Shown here one piece after another: positions 6,018 to 54,003 of a stretch of DNA of 64,000 nucleotides. Location of the stretch: assembly GCA_963851325.1 (NCBI GenBank), contig CAWKOR010000002.1:263289-327288 (forward strand), in the 5' to 3' direction. This DNA is from an uncultured delta proteobacterium. GTDB taxonomy: Bacteria > Desulfobacterota > Binatia > Binatales > Binataceae. Position 1 is the first letter of the stretch. The number at the start of each line of letters is the position of its first letter. The position numbers and the translations under genes are program-made. A model generated the notes under the pieces. It saw only the letters and a program-made list of their open reading frames with translations, was not told the origin of the DNA and did no database searches.

Positions 6018-7238
6018 TCAAGAGTGTGCGCTGAAGGCGGAGAACAGCCGCGCCATGAATGGCCGCTCGCGTTGCGCCGCCCCTTCGACATTGGCCATCC
6101 GGCACGCGAGCGACTCGAAGGTCTTCACCAGAGGCGAAGCAGCGGCGACCTGCCACAGATCCTTGCCGCTGAGTTCCGCGAGCTCGAACGATTTGTCGTC
6201 GCGCAGAATGTTCACGTACATCGGGCGTCCGAGCGTGTTCTCCACTTGTTTCTGCGTAATGCTGTGGGTGAGTTGAAAGCGATTGAGCAGGAAGTGCGGT
6301 TCGACCGCCAGGCTCAGCCGCTCGAACACGTCGATGAAGCGCCACGCCGAACGGACCGAAATGACCGACTGATTCAGCACATAAATGAGATGATTGGAGC
6401 GCTCCCAGGCCGAGACCGAATTCTCATCGAGGTGATGTCCGCCATCCACGATCACAAAGTCGAACATGTCGCGCATGAAATCGATTACCGTTCCCACGGT
6501 GCTGTCGGAAATCAGCTCGCCTTCCTCGATCCGCTTGGGCGCCGCGAGCAGATACACGCCTGACGAATGCTTGGTGAGCGCCGCTTCCAATTGAATCGAG
6601 TCCAGCTTCTTCTCCAGCCTGCATAGCGGCATGATGGTGAACTCGGGCTCGAGGTTGAGCAGCACCGCCAGTGCGCCGTTTTGCAAGTCCAGGTCGAGCA
6701 GCGCGACCCGCTTGTCCAGTTGGTAACGCAGCGCGAGCGCGAGGTTGACCGCAATCGAGCTGACCCCCACTCCGCCGACCATGCTGGCCAGCGAAATCAC
6801 CATGCCGCCATCGTGCCGTCCACTGCGGACGCGGGTCTCGCTGACTTTCAGGAGCGCACGGGTAAGGTCGCCCGGGTCCAACGGCAGGAAAAGCAGCTCG
6901 TCGGCGCCCGCGCGAATCACGCGCTTCATCAATCCGGGAGAACGCTCCTTGAGCAGGCCGAACAGAGCCGGGCGCGGCGTTTGCGATGCGTGACTCTGCA
7001 GGTAGGCGAGCGAACCGCCCTCGTCGCCGTTAAAAAGCACCATCGAGACGTCGACCGGTTCGCTCGCAGAGGTATCGGAATTCGAGTTGCCGTGTGGATC
7101 GGATTCGATTAGCTGCAGCGGCGGTTCGCTGATTCGTGCGAGCGCCAGCTTGACGGCGTCGCGAAGCTCGGACGCATGACCTATCAGGCCGATCCGCAAG
7201 GCCGCCTTCTTCGCGCTATTCACATCGATTACTGACAC
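6018..7238 (-). CDS. cpaE: Flp pilus assembly protein CpaE/TadZ (receiver-like N-domain plus ParA/MinD-like ATPase domain)
   Basis: 406 aa; an N-terminal response-regulator-like domain followed by a deviant Walker A region (ISLASMVGGVGVSSIAVNLA), characteristic of CpaE/TadZ. Confidence 0.85.
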   Translation of the reverse strand: MSVIDVNSAKKAALRIGLIGHASELRDAVKLALARISEPPLQLIESDPHGNSNSDTSASEPVDVSMVLFNGDEGGSLAYLQSHASQTPRPALFGLLKERSPGLMKRVIRAGADELLFLPLDPGDLTRALLKVSETRVRSGRHDGGMVISLASMVGGVGVSSIAVNLALALRYQLDKRVALLDLDLQNGALAVLLNLEPEFTIMPLCRLEKKLDSIQLEAALTKHSSGVYLLAAPKRIEEGELISDSTVGTVIDFMRDMFDFVIVDGGHHLDENSVSAWERSNHLIYVLNQSVISVRSAWRFIDVFERLSLAVEPHFLLNRFQLTHSITQKQVENTLGRPMYVNILRDDKSFELAELSGKDLWQVAAASPLVKTFESLACRMANVEGAAQRERPFMARLFSAFSAHS

Positions 7239-7252
7239 CCAATACTCCTTGG

Positions 7253-9049
7253 TTAGAACCGTGGACGGGCTGGATCGGGCTCGGCGAGTCGCTTGGTGCG
7301 GACTTCGTCTTCGGTCAATGGCCCGCGCTCGGACGGCTCCAACACCTGCCCGTTGGGCGGCAGCGGGCCTACGATTTGCGGACGTACGGACATAACCAGA
7401 TCGGTTTGCGCGTCCTGCCAGTCGGTGTTGCGGAACACCGCGCCCAGGTAAGGAATGTCGCCCAGATATGGAACCTTATGCACGACCGCGTTGCGGTTGC
7501 TGAGGATCAAACCCGCGATAATCAGCGTCTGGCCGTCTTTGAGCCGAACCATGGTGTCGGCCTTGCGGGTCACGAAAGCGGGGACGGTAAAGCCGAACAG
7601 CGATACTCCATGCGCATAATCAGGTTCTGAAACTTCGGTCTTGACCAGCAGCTCGATGTCGTCGCGGCCGATCACAGTCGGGCGGCAATTAATCTGGGTG
7701 CCGAACTGCTTGAAGACGATTGATGTGTTGAGCGCTTGCGCAAGCACGATCGGAATCTCGCCGCCGGACAGAAATGACGCGCTCTGTCCCGAGTTTGCCA
7801 GCAGATGCGGCTGCGCCAGGATGCGTCCAAGATTGTGCGACTCCAGGAACTGGAACAGCGATTGGGTCGCGATACCGGAACCCAGGGTCGACAATCCATA
7901 GGTCATCGTGCTGGAAAGCAGCAGCGGCAGCAGTTGCCCTCCAGGTGGAGCGACACCGGGCACCCCGCCGCTTCCGCCACTGAGCTGCGAGGTCGGACCA
8001 TAGGGGCTCGCGACCAGCCCGGGCAGACTCGATAGCGACACGCCGGTGTTCTGCAGGGCAACTGAAAAGTCGATTCCCTGGGTTTCGAGCTTGGTGCGAT
8101 CGAGTTCGGCCACGATTGCATTCAGCATCACCTGCTGCTTGCCGCCAGTGTCGATGCGGACCTGCCGTTCCTCGTAGTGGCCGCGATCGTCCCATACCGC
8201 CAGCGTGGTGAAGCCGGGGCGGTGACCAATCAGATTCAACTGATAAGGGCTGGTGACCTGGATATCGGCGATACTGCTGTCGGCAATCGAGATGCGCTTC
8301 AGGCGGCGGGGAAAATCGATGATCTCCGACGCACCGCTCATTACCGATATCACCTCGTCGGGCAGGTAATGGGGCCCTGTCGGTATCGGGTGCCCATGAT
8401 CCGTGATTGCCGGATCGTTTCGGTAGCGAACCGGAAGCGGCGCTTCAGCAGAAGCCGCCTGGCCATTTATCGGCAGCTTCACTGACGGACGATCGTCATT
8501 CGCGTGCGAGTCTTCTCCCGACGCTACATCCGAAGCGAACGCATCGGCGGCGTACGAGAGGCGCACGGTCTGCGACGTTCCGCCACTGATGCGGTTTGCG
8601 GGGGTGGATTTTGGAGACATCGCATCGGTCAGTGCGACCGGACCCGTCCCCGCATCGAGCGGGTTCGCGCGGTCGGCAATCGCGGCAACGTTGACGCGGT
8701 ATGCGACCTGGGCTCCATCATCCTGGGTTACAGTAACTTCCCACTGGCCTCGCTCAGCGCCCATCAGCACCAACTGGCCGGGCGTTTCGCCGTGGATGAC
8801 CAGAGCATGGGGATTTTCAATCACTCGAATCGCAGGTCTGGAATCAATCTTCAGATGATCGATGATCCGGGTTTGTCCGGCGTTCAAATTGATTGTCTGC
8901 GATTGCGCGACGTTTTCCGCGCACAACGGCCCTGCGGTCGCAAGCGAGATACTCGCGGCCAGAAGAAATCCCGCAGCGGCGGCGATGGTTGGTAACCTTC
9001 GGTTTTTGATGGTGTCCCGCATTTTCTCGCCGGCGAAGAATTCGCTCAT
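7253..9049 (-). CDS. cpaC: Flp pilus secretin CpaC/RcpA
   Basis: 598 aa with a signal peptide and a C-terminal secretin domain (VPYLGDIPYLGAVFRNT...). It overlaps the cpaB stop by 4 nt. Confidence 0.85.
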   Translation of the reverse strand: MSEFFAGEKMRDTIKNRRLPTIAAAAGFLLAASISLATAGPLCAENVAQSQTINLNAGQTRIIDHLKIDSRPAIRVIENPHALVIHGETPGQLVLMGAERGQWEVTVTQDDGAQVAYRVNVAAIADRANPLDAGTGPVALTDAMSPKSTPANRISGGTSQTVRLSYAADAFASDVASGEDSHANDDRPSVKLPINGQAASAEAPLPVRYRNDPAITDHGHPIPTGPHYLPDEVISVMSGASEIIDFPRRLKRISIADSSIADIQVTSPYQLNLIGHRPGFTTLAVWDDRGHYEERQVRIDTGGKQQVMLNAIVAELDRTKLETQGIDFSVALQNTGVSLSSLPGLVASPYGPTSQLSGGSGGVPGVAPPGGQLLPLLLSSTMTYGLSTLGSGIATQSLFQFLESHNLGRILAQPHLLANSGQSASFLSGGEIPIVLAQALNTSIVFKQFGTQINCRPTVIGRDDIELLVKTEVSEPDYAHGVSLFGFTVPAFVTRKADTMVRLKDGQTLIIAGLILSNRNAVVHKVPYLGDIPYLGAVFRNTDWQDAQTDLVMSVRPQIVGPLPPNGQVLEPSERGPLTEDEVRTKRLAEPDPARPRF

Positions 9050-22298: not shown

Positions 22299-22371
22299 TG
22301 AGCCGGGAGAGACTCGAACTCTCGACCCGCGCATTAAAAGTGCGCTGCTCTACCGCCTGAGCTACCGGCTC
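22299..22371 (-). tRNA. tRNA-Lys (anticodon UUU)
   Basis: The minus strand folds into a 73-nt cloverleaf: GAGCCGG-UA-GCUCAGGCGGUAGAGC-A-GCGCA-CUUUUAA-UGCGC-GGGUC-GAGAG-UUCGAGU-CUCUC-CCGGCUC-A. The anticodon loop CUUUUAA gives UUU, and the T-loop is UUCGAGU. CCA is not encoded. Confidence 0.85.
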
Positions 22372-50441: not shown

Positions 50442-50516
50442 GCGGAGCTCTCCTCGCGCGGAATTTACTCAAGGAATGTACTATTCCAATATTGAACTAT
50501 AGAGTCAAGCGACGAT

Positions 50517-51089
50517 TTGATCTCATCTGATGCCGGGTTGTACGGTCATGTTAAGGTTCTGCCGATGCTGCTTCTTCTGCTGATGTTTGGGCTTGGGTTG
50601 TTGGCGTGGACGTTCATCGAATATGCGATTCACGGATTCCTGAGCCACATCTTCACCACCTTCGCGACGCCCCTGCACCACGAGCATCATCGCAATCCGC
50701 ATGCGGTGTTCACGGTAGGTGCATGGCTCCCGACCGCGATCGTCTCGATGCTCACTTTCGGCATGTTCGGCGTGACTCCGGCGACCACGGTATGGCTCGG
50801 GATCGTGGCGGGCTTTCTCGGCTATGAACTCTTCCACTATCGGATCCACTTCGCGCGCCCGATTTGCGCGCTGGAGGATCGCATGCGCACCCGTCATCTC
50901 GCGCATCATCTTCGTGCGCCGGCGCAGATTTTCGGGGTGACCAATCGCATCTGGGATCGCATACTTGGCACCGAGCCGGATGATGCCCGCCTCGCGGAAA
51001 TGCGAGCATCGGTGGCGACCACCCAACCGCTGACCGGGCCAAGCAACTTCCTTCTCATCTTCCAGCCTTGGTTCTTCCTCACGCGCTAG
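50517..51089 (+). CDS. Fatty-acid hydroxylase / sterol-desaturase superfamily membrane protein (carotene-hydroxylase-like)
   Basis: Four TM helices with histidine boxes HHEHH, HYRIH and HLAHH. Divergent from the carotenoid oxygenase gene. Confidence 0.7.
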   Translation: MISSDAGLYGHVKVLPMLLLLLMFGLGLLAWTFIEYAIHGFLSHIFTTFATPLHHEHHRNPHAVFTVGAWLPTAIVSMLTFGMFGVTPATTVWLGIVAGFLGYELFHYRIHFARPICALEDRMRTRHLAHHLRAPAQIFGVTNRIWDRILGTEPDDARLAEMRASVATTQPLTGPSNFLLIFQPWFFLTR

Positions 51090-51310
51090 CCCCGGCCTTT
51101 CCAGCCCCTGAGTTTGCGAAGCCGCAATTTGGGAGAGGACAGTTGGCGGCATTGCCGCTAACTTGGTGAGGGCCGGAGGCGCTGCGCCACCGGCGTTGGC
51201 CCACCATCCGCGCTCCGGAAAGTGCAGCATTTGTGCGGATAAAGTGGCTTTGTTTTTGCGCATTCGGCGTTCCACTTCGCGCCATTCGAGGTTTTTCGCC
51301 GTCCCTCAGG

Positions 51311-51351
51311 ACCATCGCTCGACGTTGTCGAGTGGTGGCTTTGTTTTTTGC
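51311..51351 (+). terminator. Intrinsic-terminator-like hairpin (12-bp stem with 2 G-U pairs, loop GUU) plus CTTTGTTTTTTGCG, at the end of repeat unit 1
   Basis: ccatcgctcgac-gtt-gtcgagtggtgg followed by a T-rich tract. Confidence 0.5.
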
Positions 51352-51685
51352 GATTTTGTATCTCTTCTGGCGTCCCTTCTCTCGCTTGCGGGAGAAGGTG
51401 GACGGCGCGCTGGTCGCTCTTGGTGTTGCGACCAGCGTGACGGCCGGATGAGGGCCGGTCGCGCTTCGCGACCGGTGGTGGAAGACCACCTGCCTCCGTA
51501 AAAGCGCAGCATTCGTGCGGATAAAGTGGGTTTGTTTTTGCGATTTCTGAGGTTCGACTTCGCACCACGCGAGGTTCTTCGCGCAACGCTCAGGACCACC
51601 GCTCGCGATGCTCGCGATGGCTTTGTTTTTGCGCATTCGGCGTTCCACTTCGCACCACGCGAGGTCCTTCGCCGAGACCTCAGGA

Positions 51686-51730
51686 CCACCACTCGACGTT
51701 GTCGAGTGGTGGCTTTGTTTTGTCATTTTC
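51686..51730 (+). terminator. Intrinsic-terminator-like hairpin (perfect 12-bp stem, loop GTT) plus CTTTGTTTTGTCATTTTCC, at the end of repeat unit 3
   Basis: ccaccactcgac-gtt-gtcgagtggtgg followed by a T-rich tract. Confidence 0.55.
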
Positions 51731-51815
51731 CGATGCTGTGCCACGTCAAAACGACTGCGACGCACATGCGGCGCCGCAACTGCATGATAGCAGAGCTCGA
51801 CCGGCAGCGAATCAG

Positions 51816-52592
51816 CTATTTCCGAATCGTCACGCGCATCCCCGACCACTCATCGTTGATGCGCGTGATGCGGAAGTCCACCAGGCCCACATCCAAGACC
51901 GCTTTGCGAATGATGTTCTGGTTGAGCAATTCCGCACCCTTGCGCCAGATGATCCATAGCCGCCCCGATGCCGCATGAGGTTTCATCGCGACGATGCGAT
52001 CGCGGAGTTTCTCCGGCGAGTGCACGAACCATAGCGTCAGGTCGCGCGGGGAATTGCCGCTATGCATCTTCGCGCCCTCGGGAAGCATGCCCAAGGTCGC
52101 TCGGAATTCGGACGGCTCGCTCATCGACGCGACGATCGAGCCCGCCTTGATGCCCAACTTGTCCGTTAGCGACTTTCCCTCGTAGGCCGCGAACACCGAC
52201 AGCTTCTTCCCACCCTTTGGAGGCTTGGCGCGCGCCTTCTCAAGCGCAGATCCGATGCGAGGCCATGTCGTAGCGATTGCATCGGGCAGCAGTTTCTTGA
52301 TCGATGCGACTTTGTCGTCGGCGCCCTCCACGAGGATGAACGGAACGGTCACCAGCGCGCTATGCGATCGCATCGCCACTGCGATATCGCGTCCGGTGGA
52401 TGGGCTGCGCGAGAGATCGATCACCACCGCGCATGGCACCTCCGTCTTCTTGCGGATGATCGCGGGACTGCTCCACGGCCCGCCCACGATGCGATATCCG
52501 AGCGCGCTCAGTGCCGCCGCGCGCGTCGATGCATCGGCGCTCGAATGCAGCCACACCAGCGGCGTTTCGCTTTTCTTCGGTTTCAGCTTCAA
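51816..52592 (-). CDS. Hypothetical protein with a DUF3052-like C-terminal domain and a receiver-like N-terminal region
   Basis: 258 aa. The C-terminal region (LGIKAGSIVASMSEPSEFRATLGMLPEGAKM...GRLWIIWRKGAELLNQNIIRKAVLDVGLVDFRITRINDEWSGMRV) matches my recollection of DUF3052 family patterns. Confidence 0.55.
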   Translation of the reverse strand: MKLKPKKSETPLVWLHSSADASTRAAALSALGYRIVGGPWSSPAIIRKKTEVPCAVVIDLSRSPSTGRDIAVAMRSHSALVTVPFILVEGADDKVASIKKLLPDAIATTWPRIGSALEKARAKPPKGGKKLSVFAAYEGKSLTDKLGIKAGSIVASMSEPSEFRATLGMLPEGAKMHSGNSPRDLTLWFVHSPEKLRDRIVAMKPHAASGRLWIIWRKGAELLNQNIIRKAVLDVGLVDFRITRINDEWSGMRVTIRK

Positions 52593-52593
52593 G

Positions 52594-54003
52594 CTATTCG
52601 GCGACCGGCTCGATCTTTCGAAAGGCCCACGAATGCGACATCAGGAAGCCGGTCACTCTTCCGTCGTTGGCGACCCGGAAAAGCAACGGCTCTCCGGCGG
52701 GCCGACCGCTCTCGACGGTGAACAGCGTCGGGTCATCGGTGGGGATCAAGCGCTGATCCGGCGCGGGCGGTACGATGGCACTGCCCGGATTCAAAATCAC
52801 CAGCTCTGCATTGCGGCTCGCGATCAACGCGACGCCGCCCATTTGCACATCCTCGTATCTGCCGATGAAGCGCTGATACTTCTCCGGCGTGGGAACCATT
52901 TTGCGCAACGGGAGCGCCGCGTCCGACGACTCGCGAATCGCTGGAATTATGGTTTCGAGTATCTCGTGGCCCAGGACATCGAACGCCATGTTTGGATTGC
53001 CGTTGGTCAAGACGATCGTTCCGACGCGATGCAGCTTGTTGAAGGTGATCTTGGTCAGGAAGCCATGAATGCCACCGCTATGGTGATGATAGATGTTCTC
53101 GCCGCGGCGGTCCGCGCGCCATCCGAGCCCATAGCCGCCCATCCAGTTCGGCTCCATGAACCGCGGGCGATGCATCGCGGTAAGCGACGCGCCCTTGAGC
53201 ACCTGCGTCCCGTCGCGCTTCTCGGCCTTGGTGCGAAACTGCAATGAGATCCAACGCGCGAGATCTTTCACCGATGAGTACAGCGAGCCGGCGGCATCCC
53301 ATCCGCGTAGCGGCGGATGCGGCGCGACCTGCGGGGCGCCCTCAAGCATGCGAATTGTGTATCCGGTCGCCATGCCCGGACGCATTGTATCGGTGAGCAC
53401 GAAGCCGCTGGCGCTCATCCCGAGCGGGTGCAGGAGGTTGCACTCGATGTAGTCGGCATACGGTATCCCGCTGAGGCGACGAATCACCTCGCCCATCAGC
53501 GCGAAGCCAAGGTTGGAATATTTGTATTGGGTCTCTGGTTCGATGACGATTTCGGTGTGCGGCAGCGCCGCAATCATCTCCTCGATCGAAGGAAACTCCA
53601 GCCGCTCCCATCCGCTGTTCGGCCCCTCGCCCGAGAGTCCCGAGGTGTGCGTGAGCAGACGGCGAATGGTCACGCCTTCGGGAGTACCGAAGCGCGCTTT
53701 CGCTGCGGCAAATTCCGGGATGTAGCGAACGATCGGATCATCGATGGCGAGCTTGCCCTCGTCGCGAAGCTGCATGATGGCAGTTGCGGTGAAGGTCTTG
53801 GTGATCGAGCCGCATCGAAACAGCGTATCGGCATCCATCGCGCGATCGCCGGCGAGGTCGGCATAGCCGAAGCCGCGGCTCCATGCGAGTTGCTGGTCGC
53901 GCACGATTCCAATCGCGGCGCCCGGAATGTGCTCGCGCTCCAGCGCGCGATTGACGATCGCCTCGAGTTTCGGGATCAGCGGCTGCAACACCTGGTCTTT
54001 CAT
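52594..54003 (-). CDS. Beta-lactamase-family serine hydrolase (class C / PBP4*-like)
   Basis: The C-terminal 470 aa of ORF 52594..55032 carry the SxxK motif (CGSITKTF), a YxN-like YSN and an HSGG-type motif. The start is assigned to the ATG at 54001-54003 (MKDQVLQPL...) with a GAGGT RBS. The upstream 343 codons have no protein-like features and overlap the divergent gene. Confidence 0.85.
   Translation of the reverse strand: MKDQVLQPLIPKLEAIVNRALEREHIPGAAIGIVRDQQLAWSRGFGYADLAGDRAMDADTLFRCGSITKTFTATAIMQLRDEGKLAIDDPIVRYIPEFAAAKARFGTPEGVTIRRLLTHTSGLSGEGPNSGWERLEFPSIEEMIAALPHTEIVIEPETQYKYSNLGFALMGEVIRRLSGIPYADYIECNLLHPLGMSASGFVLTDTMRPGMATGYTIRMLEGAPQVAPHPPLRGWDAAGSLYSSVKDLARWISLQFRTKAEKRDGTQVLKGASLTAMHRPRFMEPNWMGGYGLGWRADRRGENIYHHHSGGIHGFLTKITFNKLHRVGTIVLTNGNPNMAFDVLGHEILETIIPAIRESSDAALPLRKMVPTPEKYQRFIGRYEDVQMGGVALIASRNAELVILNPGSAIVPPAPDQRLIPTDDPTLFTVESGRPAGEPLLFRVANDGRVTGFLMSHSWAFRKIEPVAE

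Follow-up and report, generated by a model that had tools for sequence, protein, structure and literature searches.

The 726-bp gap between two convergent genes (positions 51090-51815) of the analysed window, a 64,000-nt stretch of contig CAWKOR010000002.1 from an uncultured delta proteobacterium of the Binataceae, is filled from 51096 to 51721 with repeat modules, all on the + strand and placed head-to-tail in the order L1-S1-L2-S2-S3. An initial annotation of this DNA had claimed that the gap is more than a simple spacer, and the module content bears this out. The modules appear to represent three lineage-specific families, here called Lc, D and S, and with moderate confidence we read the + strand mosaic as a series of RNA modules of the 3'-end or terminator type which are swapped as cassettes. 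The array is a new lineage-specific modular repeat family and not a one-off small-RNA (sRNA) locus, because its modules also occur at other intergenic sites in related uncultured soil bacteria.

Architecture of the array

Tandem Repeats Finder reported a period of 90 bp in the gap, and a repeat finder resolved the three ~90-bp units already noticed in the initial annotation, at spacings of 283 and 90; they correspond to the modules S1, S2 and S3 (Table 1). The sequence GGCTTTGTTTTTGCG occurs 3 times in the window versus 0.13 times expected in shuffles and a repeated 34-mer 2 times versus 0 expected, the repeat units being confined to the array within the 64 kb. The earlier layout of three units, two 'heads' and a unique insert had to be redrawn as the order given above. 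The two ~45-bp 'heads' do exist, but their length was underestimated: the D1 and D2 regions form a direct repeat of 99 nt with 78% identity (51167-51265 versus 51449-51547). The hairpin ccggtcgcg-ctt-cgcgaccgg is present as described, while the 145-bp insert turned out to be the core of Lc and is not unique, having a diverged copy in L1 and strong homologues in other genomes.

At the end of each module, a hairpin is followed by TGG(C/G)TTTGTTTT. In the window, this junction motif (TGGCTTTGTTTTTGCG at its first occurrence) is found five times with small variations, and the spacing GG-N10-GC is kept at the junctions starting at 51245, 51527 and 51618. In every array, the window's and the related ones described below, all junction motifs lie on one strand; over-representation of the motif elsewhere in the 64 kb was not found.

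The Lc element

The ~120-nt element Lc makes up the 5' part of L2, behind a short leader. In L2, it consists of hairpin A (CCCTTCTCTCGC/GCGGGAGAAGG), GGTGGACGGCGC, the long hairpin B (CGCGCTGGTCGC/GCGACCAGCGTG), GACGGCCGGATGAGGG, hairpin C (CCGGTCGCG/CGCGACCGG) and the pairing GGTGG/CCACC; the order in the family is hairpin A, GGTGGAYGGCRC, long hairpin B, GTGACRGNCGGRTGAGRG and hairpin C. The predicted fold of the whole L2 reaches -92.5 kcal/mol. A profile search combined with a covariance model (R1) gave 14 strong Lc copies of 72-112 bits from ten sources, 13 of them outside the window in metagenome-assembled genomes (MAGs) of relatives and in metagenome contigs. Two further copies are weak, namely the one in L1 of the window (Lc') and its orthologue at the related locus L019 (recovered loci are numbered from L001 on). 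Another ~2-3 Lc or junction sites came from flanking DNA (~150 kb).

Lc is under strand-specific structural selection. In the model-fitted alignment, 94.6% of the cells are paired versus 36-48% with slid partners, and double changes occur in 9 of 16 pairs (39 cells), values which none of 500 shuffles reached. RNAalifold on an independent MAFFT alignment found double changes in 8 of the 16 pairs. Since the pairs include 33 G.U cells at 7 positions and 0 A.C cells, only one strand folds properly, and this is the sense strand of the upstream gene wherever that gene could be called. The element follows the stop codon closely: it starts after 56 and 8 nt in L019 (two copies), 56 in L022, 48 in L018, 38 in L010, 43 and 36 in L004 (two copies) and 59 in L001, while Lc' of the window, the beginning of the first module, starts 7 nt behind the stop codon of the co-oriented upstream gene. 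The two Lc copies of L004 stand one behind each of two convergent genes.

Lc also occurs as convergent inverted doublets between convergent genes (L004, 1895-2007 (+) and 2194-2074 (-); L009, 613-493 (-) and 406-530 (+)), each copy being sense to its own upstream gene. Such a doublet would form a hairpin of ~200 nt, which the miRNA-precursor models of Rfam match as noise.

The S and D modules

In S1, the blocks TTCCAC, CGAGGTTTTTCGC and CTCAGGACCA precede a 12-bp stem with two G.U pairs and the tail CTTTGTTTTTT. The terminal hairpin of S2, TCGCGA-TGC-TCGCGA (6 bp), represents the commoner type of the family, and the perfect 12-bp stem of S3 (ccaccactcgac/gtcgagtggtgg) with its tail CTTTGTTTT is exactly as first annotated. 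A terminator scan called S1 and S3 (12 bp) as well as S2 (6 bp), each as a GC-rich stem with a short loop and a U-tract on its 3' side; within 60 kb of the window, no site looks more like an intrinsic terminator than those of S1 and S3. The early description of structured, strand-oriented modules with terminator-like hairpins was thus accurate. Because the S1 stem has two G.U pairs, the + strand is predicted to fold better than the - strand (-35.0 versus -24.1 kcal/mol; for S3, -45.2 versus -40.4 kcal/mol). The suggestion that substitutions keep G-U pairs therefore fits the S1 stem but is not general: over the terminal stems of 11 S copies, 2 G.U cells stand against 4 C.A cells, a set of mismatches without strand bias. 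The terminal stem does covary among four stem types (alignment columns 85/103 and 86/102).

The S family comprises 12 copies in 9 loci, found when metagenome contigs and a genome collection with one entry per species were scanned for patterns. Outside the window, the copies lie in L001, L004 and L005 (two MAGs named 'uncultured delta proteobacterium') and in five metagenome contigs (L009, L010, L011, L014, L015). The search patterns required the CTCAGGACCAC block, CTCAGGACCA, TGGCTTTGTTT and the S tail, whose invariance is given by construction; hence only CGAGGTCCTTCGC, near-invariant across about 11-12 S copies, is independent evidence of constraint on S. The strict pattern matched 2 of 185,579 species genomes, at 1-2 loci each, and a profile search in 217 kb gave no further copies, so that S looks narrow in distribution and low-copy. 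The S blocks are kept between genomes whose neighbouring proteins are only 65-76% identical, and S2 shares 92% identity over 61 nt with the copy in L014. Minimum-free-energy predictions for the 5' half of S did not agree on a common fold; a possible alternative pairing, GGUCC/GGACC, overlaps the base of the terminal stem. Pattern matches in L002, L003, L006, L007, L008, L012, L013 and the viral L024 and L025 were discarded on reading as chance matches.

The D family consists of ~50-nt A-rich hairpins ending in AAAGTGG(C/G)TTTGTTTTT, which form the 3' parts of L1 and L2. D1 is an irregular hairpin (CCAC-C-ATCCGCGC ... GTGCGGAT-AAA-GTGG) followed by CTTTGTTTTT.

Dispersal and turnover of modules

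Copies of S and L as well as the junction motif turn up again in related MAGs and in metagenomes, in intergenic regions that differ in their flanking genes; dispersal of the families over unrelated intergenic sites of related genomes is thereby shown. The array is therefore not the local one of the initial annotation. The same annotation had named dispersal over dozens of intergenic sites, together with a lack of transcription, as the mark of a REP- or MITE-like element; dispersal was indeed found, but S occupies a handful of sites and not dozens.

The gene convergent to the array, encoding a 258-aa protein, served as bait to fetch syntenic loci, and L018, L019 and L022 have arrays at the matching place and in the matching orientation. 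Window positions 51114-51257 are 83% identical to L019 5110-4964 (80.6% for the neighbouring gene), and with this identity at a syntenic site L1 of the window is orthologous to its counterpart in L019. L1 is the only common module: S1-L2-S2-S3 has no counterpart in L018, L019 or L022, where other modules take its position and an inverted Lc stands behind a 257-aa gene. Instead, S1-L2-S2-S3 is collinear with an S-L-S block at the unrelated locus L001 of another MAG (76% identity over 401 nt). A second syntenic trio, L005, L015 and L010 at a PPK2-like locus, also differs in its module sets and retains S. Relatives are thus shown to differ in which modules they have at an orthologous site, and the junction motif marks the breakpoints of all these exchanges.

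Several observations concern the same sites in relatives. In one relative (L020/L021), the homologous 257-aa gene is directly followed by an IS1595-family transposase gene (PF12762; 4984-5877), with a GFO_IDH_MocA gene on the other side, at the place where L019 and L022 have the array; the presence of the transposase gene there suggests that the site is insertion-prone. In L018, ~1.1 kb without gene-like codon bias (6250-7370) has on each side a near-duplicate copy of one gene's 3' end plus the same TTATTTGGCTTCGTTTT terminator module (7440-7370 and 6240-6150) and looks like an insertion or rearrangement mediated by modules. A variant terminator module, AAAGCGAAG…GGTTATTTGGCTTCGTTTTGTCAAATTCG, stands just after the stop of a GFO_IDH_MocA-type gene in L018, L019, L020 and L022 (e.g., L019 5210-5150). 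In this variant, a CGAAGC further upstream pairs with the junction and accommodates its T-to-C change, so that the junction itself serves as a stem arm.

A proposed 3'-end role and its alternatives

If the modules form 3' ends, they would be transcribed as the 3' region of the upstream gene and act in the RNA as end-forming or protecting structures, that is, as stacked intrinsic terminators plus exonuclease blocks, and the stack may also insulate the convergent gene. Cassettes would spread or shuffle, either by recombination or through insertion targeted to the ~16-nt junction motif. The U-tracts may also set the 3' ends of released RNAs the size of S, which would be by-products or functional sRNAs. 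We favour transcription from the upstream gene because the arrays are co-oriented with it, S1 and S3 are the strongest terminator-like sites and a promoter scan found no sigma-70-like promoter inside the array. Co-orientation holds wherever genes were callable, i.e., in the window, L001, L004, L005/L015/L010, L019 and L020. Free-standing sRNA genes, one of the two proposals of the initial annotation, fit these data less well, since the array holds no sigma-70-type promoter and the arrays follow the orientation of the upstream gene, as expected for 3'-end elements.

A number of findings weigh against the 3'-end role. The orientation rule rests on only ~5 independent loci. The stems of D1 and D2 are irregular and the terminator scan called neither of them, and for 4 of the 8 S copies from other loci, shuffled versions fold just as well. 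Hairpin-plus-T-run sites in window positions 1-60000 number 21, 12 and 12 versus 18.6, 17.6 and 17.0 in shuffles, which suggests that canonical intrinsic terminators are not in general use in this organism; because such terminators are not enriched overall, five stacked ends at one place are odd, and the terminator reading leaves the stacking itself unexplained. Nor does a simple terminator, which needs only a hairpin and a U-tract, explain the near-invariant CGAGGTCCTTCGC block. The strand-specific G.T pairing could also reflect recognition of single-stranded DNA, and the low copy number of S seems to resemble a small sRNA family more than a proliferating repeat.

A more elaborate scheme, which we regard as tentative and on balance improbable, makes both Lc and S functional RNAs of a Binatia-like lineage: Lc would be a new ~120-nt structured motif of the 3' untranslated region placed directly after stop codons, and S a new low-copy sRNA family, possibly sigma-54-driven, whose promoter inside the preceding terminator would permit head-to-tail stacking and cassette swapping.

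Rather unlikely is the related view that the S units, possibly with D as an upstream control, are tandem sRNA genes. Here, the junction TGGCTTTGTTTTTGCG would combine a U-tract with a sigma-54-type -24/-12 promoter (TGGC-N9-TGC), and RNAs of ~80 nt would start near the TTCGAC block and end at the next U-tract. GG-N10-GC is exact at 3 of the 4 internal junctions of the window, and by a hand count it is present at 9 of 11 junctions directly upstream of S versus ~4 of 23 other internal junctions; the association would be expected just as well if TGCG… is simply how the S module begins, in conserved form, and overall, terminal and internal junctions have the GC equally often. The TTCGAC/TTCCAC block starts 9-11 nt after the GC, near the expected sigma-54 start site, but agreement with the sigma-54 consensus is limited to the TGG/TGC cores and does not extend to the ACG of TGGCACG, and the T-run varies by +/-1 at several junctions, including 51336. 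In being conserved across genomes, low-copy and terminator-ended, the S blocks resemble known multi-copy sRNA families, and a copy is retained at the PPK2-like locus (L005, L015, L010) though the surrounding modules differ; against this, three relatives have no S at the syntenic locus, and S always has the orientation of the upstream gene.

We consider it unlikely, too, that the modules are selfish DNA-level repeats of REP/REPIN or MITE type, i.e., single-stranded DNA hairpins recognised by a transposase or recombinase and lacking an RNA function, in which case the terminator-like look and the gene-sense orientation would be side effects of target choice. Dispersal of the families and the fast turnover of locus content are what such repeats would show, as is the strand-specific G.T tolerance if the hairpins are recognised on one DNA strand. 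The Lc doublets of L004 and L009 resemble REPINs, and an IS1595-family transposase gene occupies the same intergenic site in L020/L021. However, the window array is strictly head-to-tail on one strand and not alternating, the modules are not bordered by terminal inverted repeats, S has few copies and a narrow distribution, and no Y1_Tnp/RAYT gene (PF01797) is among the called genes of L016-L023, a small sample. Moreover, every Lc copy with a callable upstream gene is sense to that gene, doublets included, which fits a transcription-linked function better than random insertion.

An attenuator or riboswitch-like leader array regulating the downstream gene, the other proposal of the initial annotation, is very improbable. 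Stacked terminator-like hairpins with possible alternative pairings would suit it and a co-directional gene does follow the array in L004 and L005, but the downstream gene is convergent in the window, for which reason attenuation was rejected, and also in L001; downstream genes differ at every locus and no cis-regulatory family of Rfam matches.

Least credible of all is a repeat protein encoded by the 256-aa open reading frame (ORF) that spans the whole gap on the - strand (51079-51849), which we practically dismiss. A 771-bp ORF is unusual for an intergenic region of ~60% GC, and public gene calls place similar ORFs over the arrays of L019 (4432-5115), L022 (5061-5780) and L018 (6149-7069). 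Yet the GC content by codon position is flat (0.62/0.56/0.61, versus third-position values of 0.71-0.80 in the flanking genes), Pfam gives no match, the translation is low-complexity and basic, and the repeat copies, spaced 282, 283 and 284 nt, are consequently read in different frames, which counts against coding. The array ORFs of L018, L019 and L022 are annotated as proteins of 227-306 aa without Pfam matches; with flat GC across codon positions, these 'hypothetical proteins' are probably spurious.

Comparison with known families

Rfam 15 covariance models at the gathering threshold matched only one tRNA in the window. At E<=10, nothing credible appeared over 51000-51900, and 11 related loci gave only noise, mainly miRNA-precursor matches to long hairpins. 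The Rfam scan suggested in the initial annotation thus produced no family match for the array, and its statement that the array has no known protein, tRNA or CRISPR identity stands, as Pfam, Rfam, codon GC and repeat layout all fail to fit. Megablast of 50500-52600 against a plasmid collection gave no match, viral contigs gave no genuine one, and nothing relevant was found in the literature on the motifs or on repeats or non-coding RNA of Binatia.

Other candidates were rejected individually. CRISPR does not fit, the units being contiguous (22-260 nt apart) and themselves repeated, with no unique spacers of similar length. A MITE would have terminal inverted repeats around the modules, where the only inverted repeats are the internal hairpins; a target-site duplication might be seen in the junction motifs that border the S1-S3 block, but the motif belongs to every module. 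For a CsrA sponge, L2 has about six GGA versus roughly 3.4 expected (a rough estimate) and S one. Integron attC sites, uptake sequences (USS/DUS) and the sigma-28 promoter do not match in their core sites, and the motif is not over-represented in the 64 kb.

REP/BIME elements of enterobacteria and REPIN-RAYT systems of Pseudomonas are built of palindromes of ~20-40 nt with a 5' GT[AG]G, occur in hundreds of copies, usually in alternating orientation, and are tied to a RAYT gene. Extragenic and dispersed, often in the gap of a convergent gene pair, REPs become part of mRNA 3' ends by transcription and can act there as stabilisers or terminators. The array is like them in its extragenic dispersed hairpin repeats arranged in mosaics and in the inverted Lc doublets of L004 and L009. 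Its modules are, however, 50-190 nt long with several hairpins and conserved unpaired blocks, and GTGG forms the 3' arm of a terminal stem instead of a 5' flank. All modules of the window lie on one strand and inverted doublets are limited to Lc in L004/L009; further, D and S share a T-rich junction end, modules lie in the sense direction of the upstream gene, the copy number of S is low and RAYT is missing among the called genes of L016-L023. Since several defining features of REPs were tested and are lacking here, the array is not a member of the REP family.

The BOX elements of Streptococcus pneumoniae (boxA-boxB(n)-boxC) and the RIME mosaics of Rhizobium are modular, with variable internal module number, intergenic, lineage-restricted and predicted to form stable RNA folds. 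The array resembles them in its modular architecture, tandem modules, predicted folds, intergenic position and restriction to one lineage, but it has no known sequence relationship to them. Neither is known to have a shared terminator-like junction at every module end, and a uniform sense orientation to the upstream gene has not been reported for them. Among modular intergenic repeats, the unusual traits of the array are its strict directionality, a shared terminator-like junction in each module and, right after stop codons, an Lc element whose covariation is clean and strand-specific.

Among sRNAs, the sigma-54-dependent Qrr1-5 of Vibrio, PrrF1/PrrF2 and AbcR1/AbcR2 are paralogues of ~80-110 nt with their own terminators, some in tandem, at stable loci and with demonstrated promoters and transcripts. 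S is similar in unit size, conserved blocks and terminator-like ends, and its junction might suggest sigma-54 as in Qrr. Unlike these families, it has no copy at the syntenic locus of close relatives, always stands among other repeat modules, has no Rfam sRNA match and offers a candidate promoter only. With intrinsic (Rho-independent) or tandem terminators the array shares the 12-bp GC-rich stems, 3-nt loops and U-rich tails of S1 and S3 and a position downstream of a co-oriented gene; unlike ordinary terminators, the modules are sequence families with conserved non-stem blocks and form exchangeable cassettes of ~90-190 nt.

Were the modules to act as RNA, they would reveal how transcript 3' ends are built, and convergent genes insulated, in a poorly known soil lineage without cultures, whose genome is not enriched in ordinary hairpin-plus-U terminators; they would also add two unrecorded structured RNA motifs, Lc and S, the former with unusually clean strand-specific covariation. 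As merely selfish repeats, they would make up an ordinary new repeat family.

Flanking genes and other features of the window

Table 1. Positions of the array modules, their parts and neighbouring features in the 64-kb window.
Feature	Position	Strand	Support or remark
Upstream gene, fatty-acid hydroxylase family (FA_hydroxylase)	50517-51089	+	Pfam PF04116, E 5.5e-14
L1 module	51096-51257	+	
Lc', diverged Lc copy, 5' part of L1	51096-51210	+	covariance model R1, 18.7 bits, E 0.0045
D1, 3' part of L1	51201-51257	+	predicted fold; orthologue in L019/L022; ends in junction motif
Junction motif TGGCTTTGTTTTTGCG	51245-51260	+	
Further junction motif starts	51336 (one extra T), 51527 (TGGG…), 51618, 51710 (…TTTTGTCA, terminal)	+	
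S1, ~90-nt S module	51258-51349	+	nhmmer 59.7 bits
L2 module	51350-51539	+	
Short leader of L2, between S1 T-run and Lc	51350-51369	+	read from sequence; outside model R1
Lc, ~120-nt structured element in 5' part of L2	51370-51492	+	covariance model R1, 111.2 bits
D2, 3' part of L2 (…CCGTAAAAGCGCAGCATTCGTGCGGATAAAGTGGGTTTGTTTTT)	51490-51539	+	ends in junction motif
S2, S module	51540-51630	+	nhmmer 75.5 bits
S3, last module, perfect 12-bp stem + CTTTGTTTT	51631-51721	+	z = -6.2
Non-repeat spacer up to stop codon of convergent gene	51722-51815		counterpart visible by eye in L018/L019
Convergent 258-aa gene	51816-52592	-	1034 homologues; P0001 100% identical
tRNA gene, sole Rfam match in 64 kb	22299-22371	-	70.2 bits

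The upstream FA_hydroxylase gene has a GC content of 0.61/0.44/0.73 by codon position. Homologues of the 258-aa protein are CheY-like by name in some sources, and some carry PF11253/DUF3052; the homologue from MFD05512.bin.2.16 is 76% identical, and more distant ones bear the label Candidatus Binataceae. For the spacer in front of this gene, blastn at word size 7 gave no match. L018 and L019 have an inverted Lc copy ('R2') at the spacer position, where the window is without one.

In public MAG annotations, the arrays are miscalled as hypothetical proteins of 200-300 aa, and they also break short-read assemblies: two independent assemblies of the same organism, L016 (end at 6907) and L017 (end at 1031), both stop inside the S3 hairpin.

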